Shown piece by piece: positions 5,966 through 58,061 of a stretch of 64,000 nt of DNA. The DNA is from an uncultured virus (IMG/VR IMGVR_UViG_3300028805_000071). Lineage: Duplodnaviria > Heunggongvirae > Uroviricota > Caudoviricetes. Within the stretch, counting starts at the first letter, position 1. Every line of letters begins with the position of its first letter. The translations under genes were made by a program, and so were the position numbers. The notes below the pieces were generated by a model. The model saw only the letters and a program-made list of their open reading frames with translations. It was not told the DNA's origin and made no database searches. The stretch is from IMG/VR virus record IMGVR_UViG_3300028805_000071; one strand, written 5' to 3'.

Positions 5966-6108
5966 ATATTCCCCTCCTTTTCTTTTATTTTTGTGTTTCA
6001 TTATAATATCAAAATTCCATTGAGCAAACACTTATAATTTGCCCCGTTGATTTTTTAATAAATTCAGAAGAATAAAATCTTCTAATTTAATTTAAGAGGT
6101 TAACAGCA

Positions 6109-8549: not shown

Positions 8550-8550
8550 T

Positions 8551-16803: not shown

Positions 16804-16813
16804 TGTACAGATT

Positions 16814-17782
16814 ATGTGAATCATAGTTGCGTCATTATGCAGTATTCTGATAACTTATTTAATCTTACGGCCACATTTAAAGCGAACTAAATCTTTAGAC
16901 GAGTCATTAGAAGAAAAAAATCAAATACTGCAACATAATAATGAACAACTATCTGCTCTTAACCAAGAGTTATGGAAACAGAATCAAGAATGGACAAGCC
17001 AACTAAGTCAATTAAAATTAGAAAAAGAATTATTAGATAGTAATTTTCAAGAGAGCGAAGCACAACAACAAAAAAATCAAAAACTTCAGCTTGAATTATT
17101 ACAAACAGAATATGAAAATAAATGCGTTGATTTAAAACGTAAATATGATGGGTATGTTAAAAGTTATCAAACAGAGTATTTAAAAATACTTGATGAAACA
17201 TCGGCATCCTTACATCAGTTTGTTGATAATTATAATCTTACTATCCAAGAGTATAAAGATAATTTAGCAAAAATGCGCTCAATGTCTAATGCGGCTGTTG
17301 AAGCGTATAAACGAGAAGCTGAAAAACAAAATCAACAAAAGTTTTATCAATTACATTTATCTGATACGGATATAGAAGAGATTAATCGAATCAAATCTAT
17401 TGCGCCGTATCTTCGTGACCCGCGCCCATTAAATAAAGTAATTTATTCAGTTTATTATCAGCGCCCTTTATCTGACCTAATTGGTAGGGTTTTAGGGCAA
17501 GAAAAACGAACTGGTATTTATAAAATTACAAATTTAATTAATGGAAAGTGTTATGTCGGACAAGCACGTGATGGAAGTGCGCGTTGGCAAACACATATTA
17601 AATGTGCGGTGGGGGCGGAAAAAGCACCAATGAATAAATTATATCCCGCTATGCAAAAACATGGCATAGAAAATTTTACTTTTGAATGGTTAGAAGATTG
17701 TCCACCAGAGATTCTTAATGAACAAGAACAGTATTGGCAAGATTTTTATCAAGCCAAAACTTATGGATATAGTATGAAATAA
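16814..17782 (+). CDS. GIY-YIG endonuclease with N-terminal hydrophobic anchor and coiled coil (322 aa; codon 2 is TGA)
   Basis: ATG-TGA-ATC at 16814 is in frame and open to the ORF at 17273; M(W)IIVASLCSILITYLIL hydrophobic segment; GIYKITN...CYVGQA...RW..H motif. Confidence 0.75.
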
Positions 17783-32153: not shown

Positions 32154-34379
32154 ATGAAACAAGTAATTAAGAGAGATGGTCGGCACACAGATTTTAATAG
32201 AGAGAAAATTGAACACGCCGTATTAAAGTGCTTTGAAGCCGTTGATGGTGAAATTAGTGATTTTGCAAAACAAAAAGCACATAATATAGCCGACCATATT
32301 GAAGGATTAGACCAAGAAGTTTTAGAGGTAGAAGAAATTCAAGACCTTGTAGAACATGGTTTAATGAGTAGTAAACGTAAAGATGTAGCTAGAGCTTATA
32401 TCACATATAGAGATGAGCGCACCCGCGCAAGAAACCGCAACGCTCAATTAATGAAAGTAGTAAAAGAAAAGCTCGATGCATCGAACGTTGTTAATCAAAA
32501 TGCGAACGTCGATGAAAAAAGTTTCGGTGGTCGTAGGGGTGAAGCCTCAAATGAAATTATGAAACAATATGCGATTGATAATTTATTATCTGATTTATCT
32601 CGCAATAATCATATAAACAATCGTATTTATATTCATGATTTAGATTCTTATGCTATTGGTATGCATAATTGTTTAACAGTTCCTTTTGATGATTTATTAG
32701 CAAAAGGATTTAATACAAGACAAACTGATGTGCGCCCAGCTAATTCAGTAAATACTGCATTCCAATTAGTAGCCGTATTATTCCAGTTACAATCTTTACA
32801 ACAGTTTGGTGGAGTAAGTGCAAGTCATTTAGATTGGACGATGGTTCCTTATGTAAGAAAATCATTCGCTAAACATTATATTGATGGATGGTGTTTTATC
32901 AATGATAAACCCATCGATGAAATTGATTATGAAATAGAGCATATGTTACATAACTGCACTGAATACGGAATTACCGACCCAGAGTGGAAGGCATATGATG
33001 GCAGAGTTTATAAATATGCATTAGCAATGACTGAAAAAGAAACTCAGCAAGCGGTTGAAGGCATGTATCACAACTTAAATACACTGCAAAGCCGGTCAGG
33101 AAATCAATTACCATTTACTTCAATTAATTATGGTACTTGCACATTACCAGAAGGGCGCATGGTTATTAAGGCACTTTTGGAAGGCTCAATTAAAGGTGTC
33201 GGCAAACTTCATAAAACTCCAATTTTCCCTTGCGGAATTTTCCAATATATGAAAGGAGTTAATGACAAACCCGGCACACCGAATTATGACTTATTCCAAC
33301 TGGCTCTTGAATCAACCGCAAAGCGTTTATATCCAAACTATGCAAATGTAGATTGGAGTGGTAATGCTGGATATGATAGAAATGACCCTCGTACATATTT
33401 CAGTACAATGGGATGCCGCACGGCGAATGGCTTTGATATTAACGGCTTTGGCCAGCTTAAAGATGGTCGTGGAAATATTTGTCCAGTAACAATTATACTT
33501 CCAACTCTTGCAATGGAGGCGAAGGAATCAGTTGAAGAAGGCGGAGATATTGTTGACGAATTCTTCAAGATTTTGGATAAGGCAATCTTTGATGCAAAGG
33601 ATATGCTTTTAGAAAGATTTGATTATATTTGTTCACAAGATGCCTCAAGTGCAAAGTTTATGTATGAGAATGGCACAATGGCTGGTTATATCCCAGAGCA
33701 AGGTATTAGAAGTGCTTTAAAGCATGGAACAATTGTAATTGGTCAGTTAGGATTAGCAGAAGCTCTTCAAATTCTTATTGGTTGCGACCATACAACCGAC
33801 CAAGGTATGGAAGTAGCAAAACACATCGAACAATTATTTAAAACAAGATGTGCAGAATTTAAAAATAAATATTGTCTTAATTTTGGAGTATATTATACCC
33901 CCGCTGAAAATCTTTGCTATACCGCTATGAAAAAATTCCAAAAGCAATATGGCAAGATTCCAAATGTAAGCGACAGAGAATATTTTACAAATTCAATGCA
34001 TGTTCCTGTATGGAAAGAAATTTCACCTTTCGATAAGATAGATATTGAAAGTCAGTTAACTGGATATTCTAGCGCTGGATGTATTACATATGTTGAATTA
34101 GAGGGCGCTATCTTAAAGAATATTCCTGCACTTGAACAAATTGTAACTTATGCTATGGATAAAGACATTCCATATTTTGCAGTAAATGTTCCAGCTGATA
34201 CATGTCTTGATTGCGGTTGGACAGGTGAGATAGGAAATGCTTGCCCAGAGTGTGGGTCAACACATATTCAAAGATTAAGAAGAGTAACCGGTTATTTAAC
34301 TGGTGATTATAAAACTGCATTTAATTATGGAAAACAAAAAGAAGTCGAAGATAGATTTAAACATAGTAAAAAACTTTAA
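32154..34379 (+). CDS. nrdD: anaerobic (class III) ribonucleoside-triphosphate reductase
   Basis: ATP cone VIKRDG, IYIHDLD, HNC, TMGCRT, TPAENLC, CxxC-CxxC, RRVTGYL glycyl-radical motif. Confidence 0.97.
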   Translation: MKQVIKRDGRHTDFNREKIEHAVLKCFEAVDGEISDFAKQKAHNIADHIEGLDQEVLEVEEIQDLVEHGLMSSKRKDVARAYITYRDERTRARNRNAQLMKVVKEKLDASNVVNQNANVDEKSFGGRRGEASNEIMKQYAIDNLLSDLSRNNHINNRIYIHDLDSYAIGMHNCLTVPFDDLLAKGFNTRQTDVRPANSVNTAFQLVAVLFQLQSLQQFGGVSASHLDWTMVPYVRKSFAKHYIDGWCFINDKPIDEIDYEIEHMLHNCTEYGITDPEWKAYDGRVYKYALAMTEKETQQAVEGMYHNLNTLQSRSGNQLPFTSINYGTCTLPEGRMVIKALLEGSIKGVGKLHKTPIFPCGIFQYMKGVNDKPGTPNYDLFQLALESTAKRLYPNYANVDWSGNAGYDRNDPRTYFSTMGCRTANGFDINGFGQLKDGRGNICPVTIILPTLAMEAKESVEEGGDIVDEFFKILDKAIFDAKDMLLERFDYICSQDASSAKFMYENGTMAGYIPEQGIRSALKHGTIVIGQLGLAEALQILIGCDHTTDQGMEVAKHIEQLFKTRCAEFKNKYCLNFGVYYTPAENLCYTAMKKFQKQYGKIPNVSDREYFTNSMHVPVWKEISPFDKIDIESQLTGYSSAGCITYVELEGAILKNIPALEQIVTYAMDKDIPYFAVNVPADTCLDCGWTGEIGNACPECGSTHIQRLRRVTGYLTGDYKTAFNYGKQKEVEDRFKHSKKL

Positions 34380-34926
34380 ACAAAGCGTTATTGCTGGGGT
34401 ACTGATTGGTTTTGGGGTTATCATTAACCTCTTAACCACCCCGCCCATTTTAGGTGCCACTTTATTTAGTTTTGGACTTTTAGCAATTATCCAATTACAA
34501 ATTCCGTTATATACTGGTAAGATTGGTTTTGCTATTAATAAAATATCTCAACCTTATATTTTGATTTTTATTGGTAATTGTTTAGGTATTTTATTAGTTG
34601 TTACTATGTATGCATGCGCTAATATTGAATTTTCAAATATATTAATTCAAATCGCAACAGTTAAATTTTCTAAATCTTTATTATCAATGTTATTATATGG
34701 GTGTTTATGCGGGTTTTTAATTCATATAGCCGTTAAATGTAAAATACCCATTATCACAGTTGGGGCAATTATAATTTTTATATTGATAGGAAGTGAACAC
34801 TGTATTGCAGATGCGCCATATTTATATGTAATACACTCCTGGGATGCACTATTAAAATGGTTATTAGTTGTTTTTGGTAATTCTATTGGAGCGATGTTTG
34901 CGGAAGGTATGTTAACAGATGAATAG
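34327..34926 (+). CDS. formate/nitrite transporter (FNT) family channel
   Basis: AGVLIGFG, LFSFGL, LYTG, GN..G, G.LCG.L, FILIGSEHCIAD, GNSIG; about six hydrophobic segments; start uncertain (34303 or 34327). Confidence 0.85.
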   Translation: MENKKKSKIDLNIVKNFKQSVIAGVLIGFGVIINLLTTPPILGATLFSFGLLAIIQLQIPLYTGKIGFAINKISQPYILIFIGNCLGILLVVTMYACANIEFSNILIQIATVKFSKSLLSMLLYGCLCGFLIHIAVKCKIPIITVGAIIIFILIGSEHCIADAPYLYVIHSWDALLKWLLVVFGNSIGAMFAEGMLTDE

Positions 34927-37732: not shown

Positions 37733-38479
37733 ATGAGGGGATTAACAAAAGCAGCAAATTTATTCATTAAAGAGGCCCAAATAAAAAATGTCGCTATACA
37801 AAATAATTTTTTAATGCTGGCAATTAATGGAATGCTTGCTGGTTTTTTTATTGGTTTAACTGGATTTATGTTCCAGGAAACTTTATTATTTACTGGTAGT
37901 ATAATGATAGCAGCAGCGGTATTACCGTTAGGATTTATTTTATGTGATACATTTAAATCTGATTTATTTTCAACACATTTTTTATATTCATTAGCATCAT
38001 ATAAAAAAGATTTAACGTGGAAACAATTTGCGCTATCGGCATTATGTGTTACTTTATTTAATATTTTTGGAATAATTATTTTTATTTTAATGATGTGGGG
38101 AGCTGGCCAAATTCCAAATATTAGCACTATAGCACTTGGTGAAATTACTATGAAAACAGATGCTAATTTTTTTCAAACTTTTATTAAAGGTATTATTGGA
38201 TGCGTAGCTTCTTGTATGGGAGTATTCACTGCTAAACGCACAGACTCTGCATTTGAAAAAGTAATGTCCATTTGGATTTCAATGTTCACACTCGGCGTTT
38301 GCGGATTTGAACATGCAACTTTAGATTTATATCATTTCTTGGTATGTCAAGATACGGCTATTATGAGGGCATATTTCCCTAACCTTGTGTTAACTTACTT
38401 TGGCAATTTAATTGGTGGGTTAATCTTTGCGGGAATTGTAACCGGCATGTATAGCTTAAAAAACAACGAAAAGAATTAG
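37733..38479 (+). CDS. second FNT-family channel
   Basis: GMLAGFFIG, LPLGFIL, DLFS, KGIIG, GFEHA, GNLIGG motifs. Confidence 0.82.
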   Translation: MRGLTKAANLFIKEAQIKNVAIQNNFLMLAINGMLAGFFIGLTGFMFQETLLFTGSIMIAAAVLPLGFILCDTFKSDLFSTHFLYSLASYKKDLTWKQFALSALCVTLFNIFGIIIFILMMWGAGQIPNISTIALGEITMKTDANFFQTFIKGIIGCVASCMGVFTAKRTDSAFEKVMSIWISMFTLGVCGFEHATLDLYHFLVCQDTAIMRAYFPNLVLTYFGNLIGGLIFAGIVTGMYSLKNNEKN

Positions 38480-38497
38480 GAAAGGTTGGGAAAAAAT

Positions 38498-38926
38498 ATG
38501 GAGGGTTTAAACGCCTATTGGTTAGAAATCCTTTTTGGACTAGTTAGTGCAGCCGTTATGTGAGTCATTCATAGATTATCCAAAGAGGTAAATCGTTATA
38601 AAGAATTATTAGAAAATAAAGAAAATGCAGATTTCATCGCTATTGTAGATGATAAGATGAAACCAGTATTAGAGAAAATAGATAAATTAAACGACCAAAT
38701 GATGGGTTGTAAAGCGAAATTTGACCATAATATGGAACAAAATATTAGATATTATGGGACAATTTTACAAAATGATTGTGAAAATTATATTAGCCGCGGT
38801 TATGTAACTCATAAAGAATTCAATGAACTTGCCGAATTACTTCATATTTATGAAGAACTTGGCGGGGATGGTAAAATTCATGACCTTTATCAAAAGGTTA
38901 TGATGTTACCAGCGGAAGAAGATTAA
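38498..38926 (+). CDS. membrane-anchored holin-like protein (142 aa; TGA 38561-38563=Trp)
   Basis: ATG 38498 is in frame with ORF 38657; N-terminal hydrophobic YWLEILFGLVSAAVM(W)VI; C-terminal YEELGGDG pattern seen in lysis-cassette proteins. Confidence 0.7.
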
Positions 38927-38960
38927 AAAAAAGGGAGAGCTTAATGCTCTCCCTTTTTTT
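38926..38960. terminator. bidirectional terminator at the convergence of the + and - gene blocks
   Basis: A7-GGGAGAGC-TTAAT-GCTCTCCC-T7. Confidence 0.85.
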
Positions 38961-38966
38961 ATTGTC

Positions 38967-39061
38967 TGGCACGCCCCGTAGGATTCGAACCCACACCCAC
39001 CGCTTTGGACACGGTTACCCTGGTTTTGAAGACCAGTGTGCTACCATTACACTAGGGACGC
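38967..39061 (-). tRNA. UGA-decoding tRNA (anticodon TCA), Trp-type body, with a 25-nt extra arm
   Basis: GCGTCCC-TA-GTGT AATGGTA GCAC-A-CTGGT CTTCAAA ACCAG-[GGTAACCGTGTCCAAAGCGGTGGGT]-GTGGG TTCGAAT CCTAC-GGGGCGT-G-CCA; 7/5 acceptor/T stems, G73. Confidence 0.92.
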
Positions 39062-39261
39062 AAGTCATACTCGCCAGTTTGTCGAATTATATATTGCCCA
39101 TTCATTTCAATTGTGTCATAGTAATATCTTTTATTTAATTCATCTACACTAACACAAACTTCTACGGGCTCTTTAAAACTAACACCAAATAAAAAACTTT
39201 CATATTCTTTAAATTGGCGCACATCTTTAACTGTTATATAAATTTTTACATTATCTGACAT
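39052..39261 (-). CDS. hypothetical protein (69 aa), probably co-transcribed with the UCA tRNA
   Basis: AAAGGA SD; its last 10 nt overlap the tRNA 5' end. Confidence 0.6.
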   Translation of the reverse strand: MSDNVKIYITVKDVRQFKEYESFLFGVSFKEPVEVCVSVDELNKRYYYDTIEMNGQYIIRQTGEYDLRP

Positions 39262-39325
39262 AGTTATTTCCTTTTGGGGGAGAGAAGAAATTCTCTCCCC
39301 CTTTTTTTATTTTCTGTAACACTAT

Positions 39326-39354
39326 ATTATATGGTTTTTTTCTGCTAAAGTCAA
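39326..39354 (-). promoter_or_regulatory. sigmaA-like promoter for ORF39261 and the UCA tRNA
   Basis: TTGACT-17 nt-TATAAT on the minus strand. Confidence 0.75.
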
Positions 39355-39360
39355 GTTTGC

Positions 39361-41172
39361 TTAAGCAATATTGTGCATATTATTTAAATAAATTGTATTA
39401 TTATAAAGTTTAGTCATATCAGCTGCTGATAAAGCAGTTGCATATACACGCACGTCAGCAATGGAGCCAATAAATTGACGACTAGTTGATGTAGGATTTT
39501 CTCAATTGGGATGGACTTCCAAACCTATACAGCCAATTGTTTTGGATATATTTGCAAGTGCGCCTGTGCAAGCCACACTTGTATCTAATGAACCGTTTAT
39601 ATATAATTTTACATTACTAGCATCTCAAGTAATAGCTATATGACTTCATTGATTTAATGGTATAGTGCCTGTACTATTGTGGTATCCAGCAGGCGATTTA
39701 CCATATGAATAAGCACTTAAATGCCCCGTACTATCAATAGTTAAATATTGACCACGATAAATTAAAATACAATCTCTATCAGTATTTCTTGCTTTTGGAT
39801 AAACCCATGCCGCTAATGTTAAATTAGTAGCACCTTCATAATCAGGCGGATTTAATATAGCGCAACTTTGCCCTGAAGTAAAATCTGCACAAACTGGATA
39901 AATATGCGTATCACCTGTTCATTGTAAATTATCAGATTTAATACCATGAATATCAAAGCCACTAATATCTTCAATTGCATTAGAATTTAATCCCATTAAC
40001 TTTCCAAGAGTATCAGTTGAATTTGGAATTCAACCAGTTGCTGTAGAACCTTTTTCTAATTTACAGTGTCGTAATTTATAAGTAAATGACGACCCAGCCT
40101 CTCCGGATACAGTAAAACAATAATCAATATACTGAGTATCCGCATCAGGTTTAAATGTTAAAGTAAATTTTTGCCATTTGTTTACTGCCGTAAAATTTTG
40201 AGGATTGGTTCCGCCTCTTCATATCCAAGGACTTGTTGCATTTCCATTATTATAAGATAATCCAATGCATAACGGTTTAGAGGTTTGTGTACTTTGTGCT
40301 TCACATGAAATCGTATAATATGAATTAGAGTCGAGTGCAATATCGCTTGCTTTTCTACAAAAAGCAATACCTATATTGCTGGCGCTATCCACAGTAATAG
40401 TATCTATGCCATTTGCAATATTATGGTTTGATGCAGCTCCATTATAAAATCCACATGGTCGATTTTCCCAACCGCCAGCATTATTACCAAACAACGTACC
40501 TATTTCTTCTTTATCAAATGCCGTTGCTTGAAATAAATTTTCTGAAGGAAAACCTTGCCGAGTTAATGGATAGTGTACCGCTAATCCAGTGGCGAGTGTT
40601 GCTACATCGTTTGCTGATAGACATTCATTGTAAATGCGCACATCATTGAATTTTACATTGCAATAATTTGCTTGATTGAATCTACTCCCCAATGTAAATG
40701 TTAACGCACCATAATTTGCCCCTTTTGCTGCGGTAGATGTTCCAATCAATGCACCGTTTATATAAACTTTGCCCTCAGATGGTGAATGTGTAACACAAAC
40801 ATGATATCATGTATTAGCTGCTCATGTATAATTAAAATATACATATGAGGATTTACTACATCCAATTTGAATTTGAGTATTTGTAATATACATTGGCTGA
40901 TATCCAACGTCGCCATTTGAAGAAATACGTCCATCAAAAACATGTTTTCCTCCCGGTAATGTTGGGAAATAAATCCATGCAGCAAAAGTGATGTTATCAG
41001 TTCCTTCATACGTGCCCGTTAAATAATCATTAGAGCCATCAAAACTATAACAACCGCCCATAGGACAGCCAACGCTATTATCATAAGTAGCCCCATTATT
41101 TGTAATAGTCACATCACTTAATCCTTTTTGTCTTAAATCCTTATTTAAAGGAAGTCAAACTTGTAAACTCAT
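39361..41172 (-). CDS. LamG-domain virion protein (603 aa; at least 9 TGA=Trp), paralogue of 4190-5965
   Basis: AAGGAGG SD; MSLQV*LPL start; fragments 40822-41112 and 40219-40749 share one frame; NT*YHVCVT, NQ*SHIAIT*D, IADVRVYATALS motifs. Confidence 0.88.
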
Positions 41173-41197
41173 ATAATTTTTTCCTCCTTTCAAGAAT

Positions 41198-43555
41198 TTA
41201 ATTTAATAAAAATTGTAAACCTATAGCATTATTAATTTTTACGACATTTATACGAATATTTTGACCGGTTGAAGTTGTGCATATAGCAGATACGGGTAAA
41301 TTTAAATCAACCCCATAATCACTCCATAAAGCATATGGGAAATAACGCTCATGGTCACTTTCTGGAATTGAAATTGTTCCACAATTGCCTACATTTAAGG
41401 TAATAGTACCACCATACGCTTCAGTCATTGCGTCCAATTCATCATAATCAATATATACTCATCCATAATCATCTGTTTTATTACGAATTCAAGCATTCGC
41501 CGCATCGCTATTATTTCCTATATCATATGACCCCAAAAGCATAGATATGGATGTATTCGTTGCAATTGGCTTACCAACAATAGCGCCGCCACCAGTTCCA
41601 AAGACAATCTTTCAAACACCGTTTACTAATACCCAAGCGGAAATAACTTCTTTTCATTCCCCACCATGTTTAGCGTATAAAGTATTGCCAGTGTTTCAAA
41701 TATTATTTTTTTGTCCTCATGTAATAATTTTATTGCGCCATTGAGCAGTTAACGTTATATTAGTTGGTATAACATTAGCAGCTTTAATCACATCTCCCGG
41801 TTGAATAATTGCATTATTATCGCTACGTTTCCAACCTAAAAAATCTTTGCCAAATACCTCTGGCGCATTCGCGGCAACCGTTTGAGTGGTGTATCGCATT
41901 GTTACTGCATCTGGAACGGTACCGAAGCCTCCGTTATTGTAAGTTAAAGTAGCAGTATCTTCTTTTCAATTGGCGTATAAAGTAATTGTTTTATCCGCAG
42001 TAATTTCCGTGCCGCCATTAAGTCGTTTTGTAGTAACTGGATTAGTTTCACCGGCCGCAGTATTTTGCTGATTAAATAAATTACCAGTTCCACTTGTATT
42101 TAACGCATAAGCTGTTTCAGTATCAATATGGTATCCTGTTTTCTTTAATCCAAAAGTACTAACATTTCATAAATTATAATATGTACTTTCTACAGACGGA
42201 GAGGATGTAACATCGGCTCATGTGCTGCCATTATCTGTTGATAATTCAACTAAACTGTCACTACCAAGCCGTCACAACCCATCTACACTGGAATAGCCAT
42301 TAGCAATTGTACCCCCATTAGCATGATATTTAATAGTTACATGACAAGGAGTTCATTGAGCAATCATATTATATGTATTGCCATTAGTTGATGTTCAACT
42401 ACCTGACATATTATATTTATCAGGATAATGACGAATTTCGCCATCTGATGCGCCAGTTCATTGCCATTCATTAAATTTATAACCAGTTTTAGTAAAACCA
42501 ACAGCTGGAAATGCTAATGCTGTTCCATAAGTATGCGTTTGATTGGCCATTGAACCACTAGTAGCGCCGTTCCCGTCAAAATGTATAGTTCAAGTATTTA
42601 AAGCTCAATGAGCATATCAAGTAGCTCCAGACGTCAGAGTAAATTGACGCACTGAGTTACCGGACGCATTATATCATTGGGTGCCACCAGATGTAGCATC
42701 ATAGTATCCTAAGAAATGGTGTCCAGTATATGTTGGTTTGGTAATTGATGGATAACTACCGGCCGCAGTGCCTGTTCTAATTTGAACACTAGTAGTACCA
42801 CCGCTGCCACCATTTGCATTTAAAGTAATTGTTTGTAGCTTGCCTTGGAAACTAGCCGTTGCTGTGCCTGATGTCGTTTGAGACATAGTAACACTTGCGC
42901 TAGTATTACCTCCACTTCACCCTCCGGAATAAGTCCATTTAACGAATTCATAACCTGCTTTAGGAGTGGCTGTAATGGTAAATGATGCGCCAGAAGTATA
43001 AGTTCCGCCTCCAGTAACAGTACCCATAGTAGTATCTGCTGATACAACAGTAGCAGTAATAGTGCTAGTATAAGATGGCGCAGCAATTGATACTGTATAT
43101 GTATCTTGCAAGCCATTATCACGCATTTGAAATTTAAATGTTTTTGAACCACTTGTCCAATTAGAAATAGTCCAGCTACCTATTGTTCCAGTTTTTTGAG
43201 TAGGCTTAGTTTTTACGTCAATATTTGAATCATCACCATGTGCAGAAAAATAGGTAGCTGTATTACTAGTACACTTCCATTTAGTACCACTGCTATTAAT
43301 AACTTTAGATGGATGAGTACTATCTGACCAAGTACCTTCTCATGCGTAAATAGTTACTTGATATTGAGTATAAGACGCACTTGAATTAGCATAACTACCA
43401 AAACCTAAATAATAATAAGCTGTAACAGAAACATTTTTTGATGTTTCTGAACTTCTGGTACAAACAAATTTAATAACACCACCAATATGTGGGCCATCAT
43501 CAAATGCAGCATCCTTAGGGCCGGAGTTTTTAATATAGCCTGTTTTTGTTGACAT
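41198..43555 (-). CDS. adhesin or tail-associated protein with Listeria-Bacteroides (InlB B-type) repeats (785 aa; about 19 TGA=Trp)
   Basis: Five ORF-track fragments in one frame, joined only by TGA; repeat motifs TLNANGG, KTGYKF, YAH*, TLYAN*, LTAQW. Confidence 0.85.
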
Positions 43556-43571
43556 AGACTACCGCACCCCC

Positions 43572-44147
43572 TTATTTCCACTGTCCATTAATATATATAT
43601 CAGCACTAACAGTTCCTGTGTTGCCATTTCTTACAAAACTCAATCCGACTTGTGTCGTAGTACGCGTACGCATACCGGCAGTCCAACCGACGTTGCTCCC
43701 TACTGCTGCGGCGGTAGCCATAGCATAATAATTAGCATTTGCCATCGTAAAAGGAAGAGCAATATCAACTGGTGTCGAATAATACATTGCATACCCATTT
43801 GTTGGAGTACCATAATTATTTCAAGTTAAACTACTACTAGAAAAATGGCCTCAGCACTCTGCAACACCGCTTGCCCATTTTCTATAGGTTCAAATTCCGC
43901 TCGCGCCTTGGTCAACTATCCAGTCAGCCTGGCCTCCACTCGCATCTCCATATTTTAATCAAATACTATTTTCAGGATATGCCTCTGGGGTTGAAGCGTC
44001 TTGATTAGACACTATTATTTTTCCTCTATCTTCGGGAGTAAAATACAACTCATCAGAATTAATTTGCCCATTCTGTAGAGCTATATTGTATTGTTCTTGG
44101 GTGAGATAGTTTATTTTGAATTCAGTTAAATTTTGTGTGCTTGCCAT
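43572..44147 (-). CDS. tail fibre-associated protein with gp53-like C-terminal domain (191 aa; 4 TGA=Trp)
   Basis: I*TYRKWASGVAEC*G motif; fragments 43959-44147 and 43572-43787 in frame. Confidence 0.82.
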
Positions 44148-44184
44148 ATATTCCTCCCCCCCCTCCTACATTTCAAAGGAGGTC

Positions 44185-45642
44185 TTAAAAGACTTTGCGC
44201 CAAGTCCCATCGACATTGACTCAAATATCTTGTATTTTCTTTCAAGTTTTATTTATATTTGCTCAATAGCTATATAATTTTAATCATTCAGAATCTGTGT
44301 TTGCAGCTATTGGTAATTCATATTTGTTTGTTGGCGGCGCTGCTTGTCAAACAGCATAAAGATTAATTGTACCACCATTAGATGAAGTTAAATTTAAAAC
44401 TGACTGGCCATTCGTATAATCACGTGTTCCAGCATCCGCTTTGGCTTGAGTAGTTGCTCATCCATAAAAAATATAGCCAGGCTTGGTAAAACCATTCGTT
44501 GTTAATTTTTTACTAGTTCCATAATAATGGGTCGATGAATTAGTACTTCCTATTGCACCAGTCGCATTATATTTAATTGTATAAGAATTTGGTTGTCAAT
44601 TAACATAAATACTAACTGTTTTATCTGCGGTTAATGTTGTACCGCCATTTAAATTTGTAGTATTAGCGACATTTGTGCTACTGGCCGTCGACTCTTGATT
44701 AATATCAACCCCAGTGCCATCCGCTTTAGTATTATATGCTTTAGTACCAGTTATATGATACCCAGTTTTAGTCGCATTATATGTTGCAACGTTTCATAAA
44801 TTAATATAAGAATCAGCGGTTGTCATTGATGAAACCAGTGTAGAATATGGCCCATCAGCTGTAGTTGTTGAAACTGTTACTAAATTGTTTGAGTATTTAA
44901 ATCAACGACTATTTGTTCCATCTTGATGTGGTGCATCAGCTATTGTGCCGCCATTTAAATTATGCTGTATTTTTAATACTGGATAACGTACAATACTTAT
45001 ATTTACGCTTGGGGAATTATGTGGTGCCGTAGCAGTTACTGTAAAAGTATTTGTGCCATAAGCCAAATCTACCGTGCAAGATGTCGCCGTACCTGAATAA
45101 ACTTGCGTTGAACCTTTTTTAACAGTATACCCAGTAATTGCATTACTAGTGCCATTAGTTCCTTTCCATTTAAGTGTTCCAGTTGCAGAGTTTTGCGGTG
45201 ATGTAGTGCCATTGTTTGCAACAGAAGCGTTGCTTCATAAATTAATTGTAGTTAATACCGCAGTGCCACTTGCTGTTACTACGCCAGTTGAAGTACCATT
45301 AGTATCAAACCTTGCTGAAATTGTAATAGATTTTGACCCATTGCTAGTATGAGTTATACTTTTTGATTTTGATATAAGGGTTACAGTTGAACCTGACCAA
45401 TAATTTAAAGTTGCGTTATAACTAGTTCCATCTATTGTTAAAGTTACCCATGTTGGGTCTCCATCGGAATGTGACCCAAATGAATTTTCTAAATATACAG
45501 TTGCATATACAGTTGATGTGTTAGTTGTACTATTTATGCTATTTGCATCTTCATATCAATCAATACGCAAACGATTGTAACTATAACCATAGCTAGTATT
45601 TCCTACATAATTACCATATATACTCCCACTTTTATTAGCCAT
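44185..45642 (-). CDS. minor structural protein: DUF859-like N-terminus and B-type repeats (485 aa; about 11 TGA=Trp); absent from the ORF track
   Basis: AAGGAGG SD, ATG 45642; open except for TGA to TAA 44185; GYIFYG*A, NLYAV*, C-terminal T*KKIQDI*VNVDGTWRKVF. Confidence 0.82.
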
Positions 45643-45653
45643 ACATTACCTCC

Positions 45654-46415
45654 TTATGCCGTTCTATGCCATCTATTAACAACTATATAAGGTTGCATGA
45701 CAGAAATTGATTTAGCAGTGCCGGTAAAAGTATGCTTATGACTTTCTGCTGTACCAGTAAAACCATGATTATGAGCTCCTCCACCGCCTTTAGCATTGGT
45801 ATTTTGCACAGATGTTTCAGACGTCGTACCATACCAGCCTCTTTGAATTGCTGAAGAGGCGCCAACACCACCATTATATGCATTAAATCCATGGTAATGT
45901 GAAGGAATTTCATTAATCGTAAGTGTATGATTACCAACAGTTCCTTTAGGAGTAACAGATGTATTCTCTACAGTACCGCTAGGCGTATAACTAACACTGG
46001 TCGCACCGCCAGTAGCTCCAGTACTATATCCAGTACCTGCTGATACATGTACTCGCCCAGCTGTTTCTAGCTCTCAAGTACCACCTCAACTAGTCTCAGG
46101 ATTAAAATTTGCATCACTGGTTTCATAATAACTACCGACTGGGTAAAACATATCAAGTAATGTCATTTCACTACCGTACTTCATCCATACTGTTCCATTT
46201 GGATAATCAGTTGCGTTTGTAGCGTCTTCACTTGACAAAACGATATTTTTTAAATTGGCTGTTGCATAGCCGGTTGTTGCGGGGGCCGCTGTCTGGGCCC
46301 CCTTTCCACTATCAGTTAAAATATAAACTTCATCATCATTTACAGTCGCACCGTCATATTGCGCCTGTGTTAAAAAATTGATTTTTAAAGTTGACAAATC
46401 GTGTGTTTCAGACAT
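45654..46415 (-). CDS. baseplate or tail collar-type protein (253 aa; 2 TGA=Trp)
   Basis: YPVGSYY....NP..S*GGT*E, HTLTINEIPSHYH, VNRWHRTA C-terminus. Confidence 0.85.
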
Positions 46416-46454
46416 AATTTTATCTTACCTTTCCAATTAGATTAGCAATAAAAA

Positions 46455-47219
46455 TTATTTAACCTGTTGCATTGCCTTTAATGTTTTCGTGCCTACTATT
46501 CCGTCAACAGTTACCTTTAATTTCTTTTGCATACGTTCTACTCTAGCCTTGGTAATTGGCCCAAAATCTCCATCGACCTTAAGAGCCTTTAAATTTTTAT
46601 CGCCTTTAAAATACCAATTTAAGTATTTTTGAAGTTTCTTAACTTCTTCACCTTTAGACCCCTGCTTTAAAGGGGTATATTTTTGTTGATTAACTACCCT
46701 GAATATTGTTAATCTTGATTTATTGTTCATATCAAAACGAGCATTATGAGCGCTTGTGGTTGAGAAAGCCCAATTGCCAGCAGAAGCTTCTTTAATTTTA
46801 TTACCTTCGCCAACTATAAAAATATGGCCTCTTCTTTTAACACCCTTTTTTGTATAATGTCCAATATCTCCAGGCTGCGCATTTGCTGGAGATACTTTTC
46901 TATATGCCTCAGGGTGGGCATTCATATATTTTAATTGTTTCCATAACCCAAGGGGCATATTTTTATCATACACCGACCTAATGGTTACTCCAGCGCCTAC
47001 ATCACAAGAAAATCCTCTACGACTAGCATCTGACCAATATTTGAATCCTTTTGCAACTTTATTTTGAGCCGCCTTTCATTGAGCTGTTGGATGTCCATTA
47101 GGATAAGCAGCTTCTTTAGGTCTACCAGCATATGCAAGTCTATTGGCCTCGTTAGCTAATCTTTTTTGATAATTAATAGTGGTATATACGCTGGGATATG
47201 CTCCTGTGTACTTACTCAT
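46455..47219 (-). CDS. endolysin: putative Cys/His (NlpC/P60 or CHAP-like) hydrolase with a peptidoglycan-binding domain (254 aa; TGA 47076-47078=Trp)
   Basis: ATG 47219 overlaps the holin stop; FSCD (Cys), QPGDI, GHI (His); C-terminal LKQGSKG.EVK.LQ..L, VDGDFGPIT, VDGIVG. Confidence 0.82.
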
Positions 47220-47523
47220 CTTCTTCATTCCCTTCTACAAACTCAGGGTCATCATATGCTTCTCTTAAATTTTTAATTCCGCTAAATACACCAGCGGCCA
47301 TAAGTCCTTCGCCAAGTCCGGCCAGTATAGCGAGAACAGGATGCATTCCTTGATATATCCAGAATACTCCCATACCAAGCATTGCACCAAAAATAAGGTC
47401 TACATAAAAGATATATTTTGATGCAAACAATTCTTGCTTTTTAATAAGCTCTGCAAGTGCCATAATTAATGCCACCTGTCCAGCTGGAGAAATTAAATAA
47501 GTTATAAGTGTATTAATATCCAT
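47212..47523 (-). CDS. holin
   Basis: 103 aa, three hydrophobic segments, GL.A.GVFSG.KN motif, directly upstream of the lysin. Confidence 0.8.
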   Translation of the reverse strand: MDINTLITYLISPAGQVALIMALAELIKKQELFASKYIFYVDLIFGAMLGMGVFWIYQGMHPVLAILAGLGEGLMAAGVFSGIKNLREAYDDPEFVEGNEEDE

Positions 47524-47626
47524 ATTTGCTCCTTTCTATTTGATTCTGTATAATCAAATGATTCTACGCAATATTCTACTTAAAATTGTTATGAAAGTCT
47601 AATTATGCAGCTGTTCTTGTTTTATA

Positions 47627-48376
47627 TTAATGATTTGCCGCAAGTTCATAGGCACGTGAATATTCATATCCATAGGCTGTTTTATCACATTCATAAAGGT
47701 GCCAAGTCATTGTTATAGTTGTATTTGCTGGATTTATTGCAGTAAATGCGGCTTCTGGAACATAACTAGTATTAATTACCATCGCAACATTGCCTAATAT
47801 TAAATCAATATAATTAGAATTTGTAGACCAACTAATAGAGCCCGTTCCAGAATGATATATACCGCATCCACTATTAGTAATTCCATATGTATTATCAGCT
47901 TTTTGATATAATAATGCATGCGGAGTTTGAATATATGAAGAACCTTTTCTAAAAGTTGCTGAAGTGTTTAATATTCCTGTAGTAGAATTTATACTATCAA
48001 TGTACTTGCCTTCATGATAATCCCTAACTTGGCAATGTCTAATTGGATGAATTGTCCCGCTTACACTATTACTTCCATAATTATATTCTGTAATACATTC
48101 TGCAAACCCCATATAATCATGTTGATTAAAATCAATTTTTGTCCCGTCATATGCTTCTCCAATACGAAAACAAGTAATTGTACTTCCTCCGCTGGTACTA
48201 TAAGTTGTTGCTGGTAAAGTTAAATTTTGAGAAGTAGTACTTGGCGTTAAACTACTATAATTAGTCTGCCCTAAATTAATAGAATAAGTTTTTGTTAAAA
48301 GCAAACGTCCATTAAGACCATATCCCCCATTAGTTCCCGCTAAACTTACCTTATCTGTGCCTAAATATATTGCCAT
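47627..48376 (-). CDS. hypothetical structural protein (249 aa)
   Basis: MAIYLGTDKV start, Ser/Thr/Gly-rich, in the tail gene cluster. Confidence 0.7.
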   Translation of the reverse strand: MAIYLGTDKVSLAGTNGGYGLNGRLLLTKTYSINLGQTNYSSLTPSTTSQNLTLPATTYSTSGGSTITCFRIGEAYDGTKIDFNQHDYMGFAECITEYNYGSNSVSGTIHPIRHCQVRDYHEGKYIDSINSTTGILNTSATFRKGSSYIQTPHALLYQKADNTYGITNSGCGIYHSGTGSISWSTNSNYIDLILGNVAMVINTSYVPEAAFTAINPANTTITMTWHLYECDKTAYGYEYSRAYELAANH

Positions 48377-48379
48377 AGT

Positions 48380-51300
48380 TTACCACCTCACTATTTGTAC
48401 TAATGTTCTTGTTCCCCATTCAGTTGTTGTGCCATTTGAAATTAATGTTTTTCCATTGTCATTAGTTGTACTTGTAATTTGTGATGGCGCAATCGCAATT
48501 GATTGGAATGTTGCGCTAATTTTACCATTTGTTTCGGTTAATGTAGCCAAAGTTTTTCCTGCCCCAAAACCAGAAATATTAGAAACATCAAGCGCTGCAA
48601 TAGAATCATATACTAATTTAGGTGTTGCAGCTAAACTTTGTTCTGAACTACTGGAAGTTGAAGATAATTTAGTAACGCCATATACACTAGTTGATGCTTT
48701 AGTAATTGCCTGTGCTGTTCCACTACGACCTAAAACTGTAACATTAATTTTTGGAGCATTACTTGCATCCCCAGCTGTAATTGAAATGCCGGGAGAAATA
48801 TTAACCCATTTTGGTGCTTTAGTCGCACCATCTCCAACAAGTGCTTGAGTATCTGCGGTACCGCCAGCAGTAGGAGCATATATAGATACACTACTAGTCT
48901 GGTCAGCGCCATTAATATCTGCGGTATAATTAGTATAATTAGCTTCAGTTAAAATATATTTCCATTCGCCCCAATCCGAAGTATTACTACTATTAGTTGC
49001 CCCTCTAACCATTGGAGAAGGGTCATTTTTATCGTGCCTTAAATAAAATTGAGCTGCCCATCCACTATTATCCCAATGATAAGTAGTTATATATCCATCA
49101 CCAGCTGGTGGCTTATGAGTAGTCATTGAACTACTTGCTAAACAAAAATGTACTTTAGATAAATAACTAGGCGTTAAATAATCTGCACTGGCCGGTCTAC
49201 CTAAATTAGTAATATAGTTAGTTGTTGTAGCAACACTCCAAGATTTTTTACTTCCTGCGCTAGTACCAGTAGTATCTCCAGTCAATGCAACTGTAGCATT
49301 TGAACTAAATTCAGTAGCCGTCGTTGCATTTCCATCTAAAGCACCAACTATATGTCCATTTTCTAAAAATTTAATTTGTGCAGTTGTAGCATTATTATTA
49401 GCATAATTAGTATCAGTTATATAACTAAAAATTAAATCATCTGTATAACTAGCATTGTCATAAGTACCGACATCCCAAGAACCATTAGTAGTCTTAGCTG
49501 ACCACAATGGAGTATATCCATTAATTGAGGTTGTTTTAATTAATACATTATCTCTACCTTTATTCCAACTAGTAGATACTCCAGCACGAGAAATTGCACC
49601 AGTCATTGTACCACCAGCGAGTGGCAATTTGGTATTATCCCTCGCACTACCATTCGCTAAAGCTTTACCCTGTGCCGCACTCAATGAATCTGTTGTACTA
49701 TCACTAGTTAAATTATTCTGAATACCACGCCAAGTATTAGTATCTGTAGCTGCAAATGTTACATTTCCGCTTGCATCAGATGTAATACTCATATTATTAC
49801 CAGGTACTAATTTTATTCTACTAGTAGCAGAACCACCATCAACATTAATTAAATAAGTATTACCAGATGTAGTTGTTGCATTAACACTACCATTAGAAGC
49901 TCCAGCATATAAATAAGATGTATTATGAGTATTAGTATCAGTACTTTTTACAGTAATGGTTTTACCATCAGCACTAGATGTTACTGTAGTAGCTCCATCA
50001 CCCATTATTCTAACACTATCTCGAAGAGCAGATTCTTCAATTAAATTTAGATATGGATTAGAAGTAGCTGTTGTTACTTGAGAAGTACTAGTAGCTGAGT
50101 TTGCAGTTCTTAAATGAGCTGTATAATGTGTATCTGTATCTGTATTGGTATCTGTCCAAGGAACATTAACATACATTTGTCCATTAGATAATTGAACTGG
50201 ATAATTTTTACCATTAGCAGCATACCCTATTTTAACTAATCCTAATGTACTAGAAGTGGCTGTTGAATAAGTAGTATCTTGAGCTGGAATTCCCAACCCA
50301 GTAATATCTGCTTTAGCTACTGCAGTAGCTGATGTTACATGACCCAAATTATTAATAGTAATCTTATACAATCCATTATTATAAGAAGTGTGAGTTGGAT
50401 GAGTATAAACAGTATCCGTAAACTTAGGATTACTACCAACCTCAACCCCGTTAATAGTATTTGCACTTATATTATTTGTAAAACTTGCATTTCCAGTAAC
50501 CAATAATTGGCCAGCTGTTAAGTCGTCGGCAGATACAGAATCACCAAAATTAACTGGGCCAGTAAAGTTAGCTCCACTTAATTGGGCATAACCACTTAAG
50601 TCTATAACTGTGCCTAATTCTTCCCAAGCACTGCCATTCCAAACATATTCACTACCATCTGCAGTAATATGCCATACATCACCAGTTGTATTACTAGAAG
50701 AAGGCAAATCTCCTACTGTGGCTTTGGTGCCCTTATAATGAAATACACTTGCAATTAAATTATTTACTTCGTTTTTAGTATAAGGAGTAAAACCAAGAGC
50801 CGTTGTTACTTGACTTGAAGTTAATGCACCTCGTAAATTTGTAGCAGTAAGTGTCCCACTAGATGGATTAAACGTTAATTTTCCGCTTTTATACGAAGAA
50901 TTTGTTGCTGTAGTATCATTCGCATCATGTGATAATAAAACTCTCAGTGTAGAGTTTGCTGTTGAATTTTCTTGTTTTACTAAAGTGTCAGTATTGGTGT
51001 TTGTCGTATAACTTGGTGCAGCCCAAGTACCATCTTCACGTAAGAACTTAGTGTTTTGAGTTTGTGTGCTTACAGTCGCTCCTTTTGGTGCGACACCAGC
51101 GCTCGAACTAGATACTTGTGGAATATTTGCGGCTATTTGTGCTCCAGCATTACTGCCCGCATAAGTTAATGTCATTTTTACGGGATTAGTGGCATTAGAT
51201 GTGCTATCATCCGCAAATGCCGCAGACCCTACATATGTATCAGTATTATTATCTGCAGGAATGGCTCACGTGCCATCGGCACGCCAAAATTTTGTGTTAT

Positions 51301-51727
51301 ATCCGTCTTTAGGTGGGGTAGCATTAATATATCCTCCACTACCATTAGCAGCAGAGGTAGCTCCAGTCATTGCGGTTCATGTATCAGTATTATTCCAATC
51401 ATTCATAATCCAGGCATCGCCAGTATAAGTGAATGAAACAACTGCACCAGCAGGCCATGAAGTTGCTGCAGTGGTACCAGGCACTGTAGTGCCATATCTA
51501 TATATAGATTTTGCTTGACCTTCTGTTCCTACTATTAATTTTGGGCTTGCCGCGGTATTACTATTAGTAAATTTTACATGTAATGTAACGCCAGTAATTA
51601 AAGTATCGAAATCAGATAATGTAACCGTTTTATTAGCAGTATTCGCAGCTGTATCACAAGTTCCATATAAAGCAGAGCCAATTGGATATGTAGTATTACC
51701 TATCTTTGTTTTTGCTATATAAGTCAT
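48380..51727 (-). CDS. long tail fibre protein (1115 aa; 2 TGA=Trp)
   Basis: ORFs 51377-51727 and 48380-51175 in frame; KFWRADGT*AIP versus internal KFLREDGTWAAP; LPLAGGTMTG, ATSSTLGLVKIG, AATPKLV fibre motifs. Confidence 0.85.
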
Positions 51728-51746
51728 ATCTTTATCCCTCCTTTAA

Positions 51747-52718
51747 TTAACCATTCGCCTGCAGCGCAGTAAGCACCGTCTGTGATTTTTTAGTAACAAC
51801 TGTTGGAGTATTTGTTGTCCAAGATTTAACCGCTTCAAAACTCTGCGATTCTGTTTCTGGTAATGTTCCAGCATCCCACGCGCTAATATATGTAGCAGTT
51901 AATGCAGTTCCTAGCGTAGGAGCAGTGCCATTAGTAATGGTCAGCACTCCAGCAGACACAGACGCATTTGTTGCAGTACCAGCACTGGTTACATTTGGAA
52001 TTGTAACATTACTCTTGGTCATTGAAGGAGTAGTTCATGTGCTACCATACTTAATACCGCCAACATTTACAGTTTCAGTTGTTAATGTAGCAGCAACACC
52101 GCTTGTAATTGAGTTTATAATATCTATAGACTTACTAGTTGCCCCATATTTAGTATCACTTGCGCTAATAATAATTGTATTATCATTATCTGTTGGGGTA
52201 AAACTTATATTACCGCCTGATTTAAAAACTAAAGTATCTTCAATATCATTTGCTGCTACATCAGTATAAGCATTATTACTTGTATAAACTCTAACTTTAC
52301 TAAAACCATCTATTCCACTTAAATCATCTAAAGTCTTTTTGTCTGCCGCAGTCATTAAACCGAGCGCAGATTGTGTTGCAGTCGGTATATTTACATAATT
52401 ATTTTGGCCAGTTGCGCCATCAGAGCCCGTCAGTTTAATATCAATTCCTGTATATCCGCTTCGAGTGCTTGATTTAGATAAATCATATTTTGAGTCTACC
52501 GCAGACAGAACACCGGTATCAGCAATGCTTAAATTACTGCCAACTTTAATACCGCCTAAACTCGATGCGCTCGCTATTGGTAATACGTATGTATTATCAC
52601 CAGGAATTAAATAAAGCTCATTATCATTAATCAGCCCTTTATTTACCATCGCATCATAAACTGCTTGGCTTGCGACATGATTAATGGTTAATTTTGTTAA
52701 ATTTATTTCACTAGGCAC
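51747..52718 (-). CDS. tail fibre-like protein (323 aa; TGA 52035-52037=Trp)
   Basis: Two fragments in frame; LPIASASSLGGIKVG and ATQSALGLMTAADK repeats. Confidence 0.8.
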
Positions 52719-52735
52719 GTCTATCTCTCTCCTTT

Positions 52736-55123: not shown

Positions 55124-55135
55124 ATTTTCTCCTCC

Positions 55136-57616: not shown

Positions 57617-57629
57617 AGGCTACCTCCTT

Positions 57630-58061
57630 TTAGTTAGCTACGTCCGCAGCTGTTCATGTTTTAACTTGAACCAATGGCGGAATTTGAATGGTTGTATTTC
57701 TTCCACCCGGTCTAGTCATTGTTAAAGTACTTGTAGCATAATTAAATGATAAATCTGCTATATACGTGTCTATAATTGGTCGAGGCAAGCCCGTGTCTGG
57801 GTCGTATGTAGGTGCGGTATCATATGTTGCTGTATTTGCTAAAACTGCAGTATCAGCAACTGATGGACGCAATTCGAGCCTATAAACTGTTTTCCCATTT
57901 ACCTGACCTTGCTTAAATATTGGTATATTAAGAGGCGCTTTATCTAAAGCTACATCTATGTAAAATCTTCCATTGTCAGGGGTGAAATAAGCAAAACCAT
58001 CATTAAGCGCTACAGAGCTTAATCTGCTTGAATCACCACGTAATATTTTAAAAAGTGCCAT
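57630..58061 (-). CDS. hypothetical tail-associated protein (143 aa; TGA near the C-terminus)
   Basis: AAGGAG SD; MALFKILRG...DG.AYFT.D.GRFYID; LVQVKT* parallels LVQIVRW of the 48380 gene; TAA 57630. Confidence 0.72.

Follow-up and report, generated by a model that had tools for sequence, protein, structure and literature searches.

The window analysed here is a 64,000-nucleotide (nt) stretch of DNA from an uncultured virus of the Caudoviricetes (IMG/VR record IMGVR_UViG_3300028805_000071). It is part of a large phage genome with approximately 33-37% G+C. On its minus strand, at 38967-39061, lies a gene for a UGA-reading tRNA with the anticodon UCA, and the variable region of this tRNA contains an additional hairpin whose loop resembles that of the anticodon arm of tRNA-Trp(CCA).

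The tRNA gene lies between two blocks of protein genes. Plus-strand genes at 1-38926 encode a sigma factor, an RNA ligase, gyrase A and B, RNase H, a ClpP-like protease, DnaB, Pol III alpha, NrdD/NrdG, dUTPase and RuvC (Pfam), and this block is open under the standard code, as judged from lists of open reading frames (ORFs) made with codes 11 and 4. Minus-strand genes from 39361 upwards encode laminin-G, Listeria-Bacteroides-repeat, baseplate Gp10-like, fibre-repeat and BspA-type leucine-rich repeat proteins. These late genes are broken under code 11 and are whole when TGA is read through. The tRNA, its parts and the late gene block are:

38967-39061, minus strand: tRNA(UCA) gene, 92 nt plus an encoded 3' CCA (ARAGORN, Rfam RF00005, five-arm minimum free energy (MFE) fold)
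38967-38969, minus strand: encoded 3' CCA, with G73 at 38970 (sequence)
39020-39036, minus strand: decoding anticodon arm CUGGU-CUUCAAA-ACCAG, with UCA at 39029-39027 (sequence)
39016-39019, minus strand: 5' linker GGUA, from the anticodon stem to the extra hairpin (sequence)
38999-39015, minus strand: putative pseudo-anticodon hairpin of the variable arm, ACCGU-GUCCAAA-GCGGU, with CCA at 39008-39006 (sequence)
38995-38998, minus strand: 3' linker GGGU, from the extra hairpin to the T stem (sequence)
39361-58061, minus strand: late (tail/virion) gene block of 13 ORFs (ORF lists under codes 11 and 4, codon counts, Pfam)

We found that the gene encodes a complete cloverleaf. ARAGORN reported two tRNA genes in the window and described the one at 38967-39061 (minus strand) as a 95-nt tRNA with anticodon tca, labelled tRNA-SeC. 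The other is a tRNA-Glu(CUC) of ordinary size at 719-794 (plus strand). The Rfam tRNA model RF00005 matched 39061-38970 end to end (55.7 bits; gathering threshold 29; E = 2.9e-11), with a 22-nt insertion that falls in the variable region. The MFE fold (-32.2 kcal/mol) and the centroid fold are both a five-arm cloverleaf. The acceptor stem, GCGUCCC/GGGGCGU, has 7 bp and a G1.U72 first pair; the D arm is of type I, with a 4-bp stem and the 7-nt loop AAUGGUA; and the T arm is GUGGG-UUCGAAU-CCUAC. The variable region is 25 nt long and contains the extra hairpin. The two arms are laid out in tandem, as A + 17 nt + GGU followed by A + 17 nt + GGGU, and the 3' linker ends in the G-U that is invariant in a normal variable loop. 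A first-pass annotation, made from the sequence alone, had described a 95-nt UGA-decoding tRNA with Trp-type arms, G73 and a UCA anticodon, carrying a second stem-loop in tandem with the first. ARAGORN, Rfam and the sequence agree with that description in every detail, and both the stem-loop and the tandem layout are present.

Codon usage indicated that the phage reads TGA as a sense codon in its late genes. The 13 late ORFs contain 55 in-frame TGA and 63 TGG codons, so that about half of the Trp positions in the late genes of this rumen phage are written as UGA. The 41 plus-strand ORFs contain 8 TGA and approximately 149 TGG codons (row sum). Stop-to-stop frames of at least 150 amino acids cover 0.36 of the region at 40-50 kb under code 11 and 0.95 with TGA as a sense codon. 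Under code 11 the ends of the plus-strand genes are unchanged, and thus none of them stops at TGA, with the exception of the RuvC gene, whose domain is restored once TGA is read through.

Alignments identified the amino acid. Of 143 homologues found for the protein encoded at 39361-41193, 61 were aligned with it. The protein has nine TGA sites, and at five of them Trp was present in 59, 60, 49, 55 and 61 of the 61 rows. Three of the other sites were variable columns with Trp among the common residues, and one was an insertion with no aligned residue. Overall, Trp made up 64.6% of residues at TGA columns and 91.8% at TGG columns, and the TGA columns of this alignment gave no signal for Ser, Gly or Cys. 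In comparisons with three related phage records, TGA codons of the window were matched by TGG in 6, TGA in 3 and another codon in 8 cases (n = 17), and TGG codons by TGG in 10, TGA in 5 and another codon in 13 (n = 28), a similar distribution. In the repeat proteins of the window, TGA occupies positions at which sister repeats have Trp. By these sequence comparisons, TGA is Trp in the late genes and the tRNA is the phage's own opal suppressor. A paralogue of the 39361-41193 gene, with the common N-terminus MSLQVWLPL, lies at 4190-6031 (minus strand) within the plus-strand early block; it is a laminin-G/CBM tail-type gene with two in-frame TGA codons.

We searched for relatives of the tRNA with scans that were designed blind to the variable region; the sequences recovered are related to one another, and the counts below are therefore not counts of independent events. 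Scan a used the exact anticodon arm of the window tRNA against viral loci and gave 30 loci: 13 non-tRNA, 9 selC-like tRNAs, 3 tRNAs with the same body as the window tRNA, 1 class-II-like tRNA, 2 UCA tRNAs of ordinary size and 2 long tRNAs without the hairpin. None of the nine selC-like tRNAs had a U-CCA-A loop in the arm. The three same-body loci have the extra hairpins AACGGU-CUCCAAA-GCCGUU, GCGGU-GUCCAUA-GCCGC and ACGGU-GUCCAAA-GCCGU, and the class-II-like body has the arm GAGAGGU-GUCCAAA-GCUUUUC. In scan b, which used the D arm alone, the hairpin was present in 3/3 UCA tRNAs among at least 113 rows; tRNA-Trp genes with the loop CUCCAAA, among the matches listed, had a 5-nt variable loop in 10/10 cases and the hairpin in 0/10.

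Scan c combined the D arm with the UCA loop and gave 31 loci (3 non-tRNA, 6 with a short variable loop and 22 with a long one). All 22 long-arm loci (22/22) had the loop N-U-C-C-A-(A/U)-A; in three of these loci (two distinct sequences) the loop is closed by a C.A mismatch. Together with the window tRNA, these are 23 genes with 19 distinct sequences, all with a 7/5 acceptor/T branch and G73, and 19 of the 23 genes encode the 3' CCA.

We found that the extra stem covaries. In an alignment of the 19 distinct sequences, which include the window tRNA and were collected without use of the variable region, the named structure was 99.6% paired. Four of the five pairs of the extra helix had changes on both sides, and 97.9% of its cells were paired. 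Slid partners gave 40-52% pairing, and 0/500 shuffles matched the observed values. The helix of the decoding anticodon arm covaries too, also with both-sided changes in 4/5 pairs. The extra loop has an invariant U, C, C and A and an invariant last A; its first base is C or G, and 18/19 sequences have A as the sixth. The first-pass annotation had worried that the G at loop position 32 might betray a chance resemblance; that position is commonly C or G, and the covariation is far beyond chance. The loop-proximal pairs of the extra stem are an invariant G-C followed by U-A or U-G; the decoding arm has the same pairs at 30-40 and 31-39, as do most of the phage tRNA-Trp(CCA) from scan b. The loops of the extra hairpin and of tRNA-Trp(CCA)'s anticodon arm have the common form (G/C)UCCAAA. 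The 5' linker varies from 3 to 7 nt among relatives, and the last two columns of the 3' linker are an invariant G and T.

The hairpin was also found on other tRNA bodies. Scan e was independent of the scaffold (a UCA loop, then 30-45 nt, then a T loop) and gave 102 loci, 35 of them distinct with an anticodon stem of at least 4 pairs. UCCAA was present in a hairpin loop of all 28 credible G73 long-arm UCA tRNAs (28/28): 18 had the 7-nt loop (C/G)UCCAAA, 7 had C.A-closed or 9-nt loops, 2 had UUCCAAC and 1 had an unclear hairpin. The remainder comprised one gene like tRNA-Sec, which lacks the loop, one probable tRNA-Asn, three doubtful cases and one U73 tRNA. At least 11 D-arm types are represented among the hairpin-bearing tRNAs, and some of these tRNAs have class-II-like bodies with linkers of 1 nt. 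When one genome per prokaryote species was searched with the D-arm/UCA pattern, 16 loci were found, of which 6 were tRNAs, and the CCA hairpin was present in 6/6. These tRNAs came from Coriobacteriia, Treponema and Lachnospiraceae bins, where the contigs were short or of phage size, and from a Riemerella chromosome and a Flavobacterium bin. The Lachnospiraceae copy has the loop GCCCACA, in which the CCA is retained and the flanking U and A are not.

On this comparative evidence, the extra arm is a real, covarying hairpin, and its loop and two proximal pairs are a copy of those in the anticodon arm of tRNA-Trp(CCA). Stems and bodies turn over around a fixed loop, which argues that the loop itself is conserved. 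The arm might instead be structural or historical, with its CCA unread: either a relic left when the anticodon arm was duplicated in tandem, or a device that tunes the hinge of the tRNA in competition with release factor 2. The tandem layout does suggest a duplication, and the hinge that influences how UGA is read in the tRNA-Trp mutants described in PMC13092985 lies next to the variable region. However, a relic or spacer would not hold five loop bases invariant while the stem changes, nor recur on at least 11 unrelated bodies, and we regard this explanation as very improbable. As origins of the arm, tandem duplication of the anticodon arm and convergence on the arm of tRNA-Trp would look the same in the sequences.

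The tandem layout also raised the possibility of a two-headed switch, in which either hairpin stacks under the D stem, the CCA arm being presented to tryptophanyl-tRNA synthetase (TrpRS) and the UCA arm to the ribosome; in a variant, refolding turns UGA decoding on. In Trp-type bodies the tandem is a true one (N + 17-nt arm + 3-4 nt, twice), each arm is flanked on one side like an anticodon arm, and the 3' linker ends in the normal invariant G-U. On the class-II-like bodies of L195 and others, however, with 1-nt linkers and 7-bp stems, the hairpin is possible only as a variable arm. The same loop on such bodies indicates that it acts as a variable arm and not by swapping with the anticodon arm. 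The sole predicted fold of the window tRNA is an ordinary cloverleaf, and we know of no precedent for such a switch. We consider the switch, with its refolding variant, quite unlikely.

The tRNA-SeC label given by ARAGORN was rejected. Both the Rfam alignment and the MFE fold give a 7/5 acceptor/T branch, not the bacterial 8/5, and a D stem of 4 bp with the 7-nt loop AAUGGUA, not 6 bp with a 4-nt loop. All 23 long-arm members have the 7/5 branch, and ARAGORN gives relatives the same SeC label, which is thus a systematic mislabel. The UCA anticodon, G73 and long arm that invite this label would also be expected of a suppressor that is charged with Ser, with SerRS reading the long arm and G73. 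Scanning 49 ORFs of the window revealed no member of the selA, selB or selD families, and the 55 UGA codons in 13 late genes lie at Trp positions and so are not Sec sites. Charging with Ser or Sec was one outcome that the first-pass annotation had named as fatal to its proposal, and homologues with extra loops lacking CCA were another. The homologues retain CCA, and in the published cell-free assay of Seki et al. 2025 (PMC12636597), close homologues insert Trp. A tRNA-Sec or a Ser-accepting tRNA is, on these grounds, scarcely credible.

Compared with bacterial tRNA-Trp, the window tRNA has G73, which is invariant in 19/19 of the aligned family. It does not have CCA at 34-36, where it has UCA; CCA is present only in the extra hairpin. 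Its first pair is G1.U72, and A1-U72, a minor tRNA-Trp element, is found in 17 of the 19 distinct family members. Its variable region, at 25 nt, is not the 4-5 nt loop of tRNA-Trp. Unlike class II tRNAs (Ser/Leu/Tyr), it combines a type I D arm with 4-nt linkers flanking the extra hairpin; some relatives on other bodies (L195, L209, L277) do have a class II D arm together with linkers of 1-2 nt. The features of a TGA-to-Trp phage suppressor were all found: in-frame TGA codons, TGA at Trp positions, and a phage-encoded UCA tRNA. We conclude that the window tRNA is a phage opal suppressor tRNA with a tRNA-Trp-type 7/5 body and G73.

Our results are most consistent with a role of the extra arm in charging. 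For bacterial TrpRS, tRNA identity lies in G73, pair 1-72 and the anticodon (Giege and Eriani 2023, PMC9976931). Since the enzyme relies on G73 and CCA, the change of C34 to U that allows UGA to be read would damage the recognition signal, and an intact CCA anticodon loop on a second arm of the tRNA could restore it. The host TrpRS would dock on the extra loop with one of the dimer's two anticodon-binding domains and load Trp, and the ribosome would use the UCA arm, so that the codon read would be uncoupled from the amino acid loaded. A phage without a TrpRS of its own would have reason to keep a CCA loop on a second arm. We found no TrpRS-family gene in the window (49 ORFs scanned), and TrpRS/TyrRS-family genes were present in 0/5 long-arm phage records, three of which are at least 95% complete. 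The related TyrRS approaches its tRNA on the side of the variable loop and, in bacteria, is in contact with the long arm of tRNA-Tyr (Tsunoda 2007); TrpRS is a homodimer bridged by tRNAs (Seki et al. 2025, PMC12636597). We think it probable, on balance, that the extra arm is a pseudo-anticodon that preserves recognition by the host TrpRS despite the UCA decoding anticodon, and its function as a handle for the synthetase is plausible.

Published measurements on the same tRNA family are consistent with this. Seki et al. 2025 (PMC12636597) tested 31 phage tRNAsUCA in E. coli extract with no added synthetase; we classified the sequences in their table by the presence of the hairpin. All 13 tRNAs with a CCA hairpin (13/13) gave RFU_TGA values of 26,699-58,947, with a median of 68% of wild-type GFP after subtraction of background (controls: no tRNA, 5,403; wild-type GFP, 69,124). 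In contrast, the other 18 tRNAsUCA in the table had a median of 1%, and only 2/18 exceeded 25,000 (U = 224, p = 2e-5, with relatedness ignored). tRNAUCA-5, the nearest relative of the window tRNA in the table (approximately 12 differences in 95 nt, counted by eye), gave 55,739, and the Agate-representative tRNA, which has the same hairpin, gave 53,735. Trp insertion was reported for 13/13 tRNAsUCA analysed by mass spectrometry, a set that need not be the 13 hairpin-bearing tRNAs. In the two tRNAs of the table that require a phage TrpRS (AP1, HF2), the variable loop is short.

The first-pass annotation had offered several roles for the arm. Assistance to a standard-code host TrpRS is the best supported of them, by inference; the others fared less well. 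Removal of the arm finds no counterpart in contigs of public runs that span the stretch, none of which has a joint that excises the extra hairpin, and full-length transcripts work in the published assay. A refolding switch is hard to reconcile with the relatives that have one-nucleotide linkers, and there is no support for a decoy for nucleases.

The same arrangement may extend to other suppressors. A variable-region-blind pattern with the same D arm and the loop CUCUAAA (anticodon CUA) showed a 3-bp mini-hairpin in the variable region of 6/7 viral loci. The mini-hairpins are GCC-CUCUGAA-GGC, UCC-CUUUGAA-GGA, GCC-UUCUGAG-GGC and GCC-UGCUGAG-GGC, and the 7-nt loops centre on CUG or UUG, the anticodons of Gln (L185-L189, L191). 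Sequences similar to these tRNAs are strong UAG suppressors in the Seki table (PMC12636597). It is possible, though we would not yet bet on it, that there is a general rule by which mobile elements that recode in standard-code hosts use two anticodon-like loops, one for decoding and one on the variable arm that displays the sense anticodon of the amino acid loaded. The instances under this rule would be CCA for UGA=Trp and CUG/UUG for UAG=Gln, with UCC for UGA=Gly, and perhaps readers of sense codons, as possible additions.

Two further records came up in this connection. One, G011 (the record behind L236), is a complete 75,344-bp phage with genome-wide recoding (ORF cover 0.257 vs 0.765) and TGA where sister repeats have Gly. 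Its tRNA(UCA) at 6383-6476 (minus strand; loci L310-L313) is the U73 tRNA of scan e and has the extra hairpin CCCUAU-AUCCA-AUAGGG; read as 7 nt, the loop centres on UCC, a Gly anticodon, and the predicted fold prefers the 5-nt loop AUCCA. The other, L314 on the chromosome of Riemerella anatipestifer, has adjacent long-arm tRNAs at 2277-2368 and 2378-2468. One is a UCA tRNA with U73 and the other a UCG tRNA with a Trp-like body and G73, and both have the extra loop CUCCA. This pair mirrors, in a standard-code bacterium, the code of Absconditabacteria (UGA=Gly, CGA/CGG=Trp).

The CCA hairpin might be bound by some other reader of the tRNA-Trp anticodon loop, such as a modification enzyme, an anticodon nuclease of the host (for which it would be a decoy), a T-box leader in the host's trp genes, or a protein of the phage. 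The full loop signature is kept, with the U33-like U and the A37/A38-like As and not CCA alone, as anything that reads the shape of an anticodon loop would require, and genes of the tRNA-repair type, for an RNA ligase and a kinase/phosphatase set, lie in the window. However, the triplet displayed matches the amino acid (CCA where TGA=Trp; CUG/UUG in the CUA suppressors), which points to the charging step, and the tRNAs are active in plain E. coli extract without phage proteins in the published assay. We therefore consider such a reader unlikely.

Several observations weigh against recognition of the extra arm by the host TrpRS. GlnRS is a monomer without a spare anticodon-binding domain, and the glutamine parallel suffers accordingly. 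The Riemerella locus has two tRNAs of apparently different identity with the same CUCCA loop, so that Gly and Trp are not told apart there by the loop alone. At least two UCA tRNAs whose bodies are Trp-like have a long variable region and no CCA hairpin: L013 (126-223), with a 28-nt region, and L015 (122-262), with a structured region of approximately 60 nt. (The L015 phage is complete, at 263 kb, and without a TrpRS gene.) If a phage needs either its own TrpRS or the CCA hairpin, hairpin-less records should have the enzyme. That pattern was not seen: TrpRS-family genes were present in 0/5 records with hairpin-less UCA tRNAs (all fragments) and in 0/4 further hairpin-less records (among 5 searched; one complete). 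With no TrpRS in any of 15 phage records, the either/or contrast rests only on the two phage TrpRS/tRNA pairs of Seki et al. The approach of TrpRS from the variable-loop side is itself argued from its homology to TyrRS, and the proposed geometry has that basis. The difference in activity within the Seki table is confounded by relatedness and by comparison tRNAs that are of low confidence or TrpRS-dependent; two short-loop tRNAsUCA were active in E. coli extract (28,797 and 50,795), so the hairpin is dispensable there; and the set as published includes no hairpin mutant. Earlier work cited by Borges et al. (10.1101/2021.08.26.457843) indicates that E. coli charges UGA suppressors with Trp.

The flanks of the tRNA gene contain two candidate transcription signals:

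38926-38960, minus strand: intrinsic-terminator-like hairpin directly after the tRNA (terminator scan: 15 pairs, then a T run)
39326-39354, minus strand: sigma-70-like promoter match TTGACT-17-TATAAT, 265 nt upstream of the tRNA (11/12 matches)

The mirror image of the terminator-like hairpin ends the plus-strand gene at 38486-38926. The promoter match may have arisen by chance, as the region contains 5 such sites and 5.5 are expected from shuffles. The tRNA and the last late gene are 300 nt apart; in this interval the plus strand also has a strong, G+C-rich hairpin and then a T run (39276-39301), into which no plus-strand gene reads. The stretch was found in sheep and goat gut metagenomes (public runs). 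One 153-nt contig from an RNA library covers 39000-39152, that is, a 5' leader and the tRNA through the extra hairpin, and is no proof of transcription. In a blastn search with the tRNA against GenBank phage isolates, no full-length relative was found; the sole match was to Bacillus phage Eldridge (36% query cover), under 'hypothetical protein'.

Among the other genes of the window, those at 2922-4151, 8076-8549, 8539-9120 and 9581-10438 (all plus strand) encode an RNA ligase (PHA02142 OB fold), a P-loop kinase (AAA_33/Zeta-toxin-like) and two metallophosphoesterases, a set of the type used for repair of nuclease-cut tRNAs. The gene at 16796-17782 (plus strand) encodes a protein with a GIY-YIG nuclease domain at its C-terminus and a long N-terminal part resembling a coiled coil, and has one in-frame TGA near its start. 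Genes of the formate/nitrite-transporter family, an unusual cargo for a phage, lie near nrdD/nrdG at 34303-34926 and 37733-38479 (both plus strand).

Phages that read stop codons in standard-code hosts are well documented. TGA-to-Trp phages were described by Borges et al. (10.1101/2021.08.26.457843), who raised, as an open question, how suppressors are charged by the synthetases of the host, and found a phage TrpRS in two 'Jade' genomes only. They detected TGA suppressors in only 35% of code-4 phages and suspected non-canonical tRNA structures; tRNAs of the kind found here are mislabelled tRNA-SeC by a standard finder, which is of practical relevance to such surveys. Their 'Agate' phages (~127 kb) are like the window phage in having standard-code replication genes, TGA-rich virion genes and one UCA tRNA, and the passages on them that were available are silent on the variable arm. 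The tRNAsUCA of Seki et al. (PMC12636597) belong to the same family as the window tRNA and are active UGA suppressors that insert Trp; as far as the available text and supplement go, they contain no remark on a hairpin or variable arm. If the charging proposal is correct, it would give a simple physical answer to the question of how host synthetases charge the suppressors of recoded phages.

Long, base-paired variable arms are known from class II tRNAs, tRNA-Sec and allo-tRNAs (Mukai 2016, PMC5389517), as in the window tRNA. In those tRNAs it is the size or orientation of the arm that matters, not an anticodon-like loop, and none of the allo-tRNAs described there is for Trp. Copies of an anticodon arm outside the anticodon position that are read by the cognate synthetase according to identity rules are known from mRNA mimics of the E. 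coli thrS operator type (PMC9976931). These are regulatory mRNAs and are not aminoacylated, whereas the mimic described here is part of a tRNA.

The closest parallel is an engineered one. In Mukai 2020 (Int J Mol Sci 21:7793, PMC7590224), an anticodon-arm mimic at the tip of a suppressor tRNA's variable arm recruits an anticodon-binding domain of the synthetase and enhances aminoacylation. The window tRNA has the feature on which that design is based, since the tip of its arm copies the anticodon stem-loop of the cognate tRNA-Trp. Our full-text literature search, which did not cover subscription-only papers, found no natural tRNA with an anticodon-like variable arm, and the text available from Mukai 2020 names no natural case; judged from the sequences, the architecture therefore appears to be new for a natural tRNA as far as the literature was searched. 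The published system is synthetic, with an allo-tRNA body, a His (GUG) mimic and a HisRS with an extra appended anticodon-binding domain. In contrast, the window tRNA is natural, would serve Trp, and would have to function with the unmodified host enzyme. If its arm acts as proposed, it would be the natural counterpart of a design so far published only as engineering, with tRNA identity physically uncoupled from decoding in a portable module for codon reassignment, and would be of interest to builders of orthogonal or recoded translation systems.

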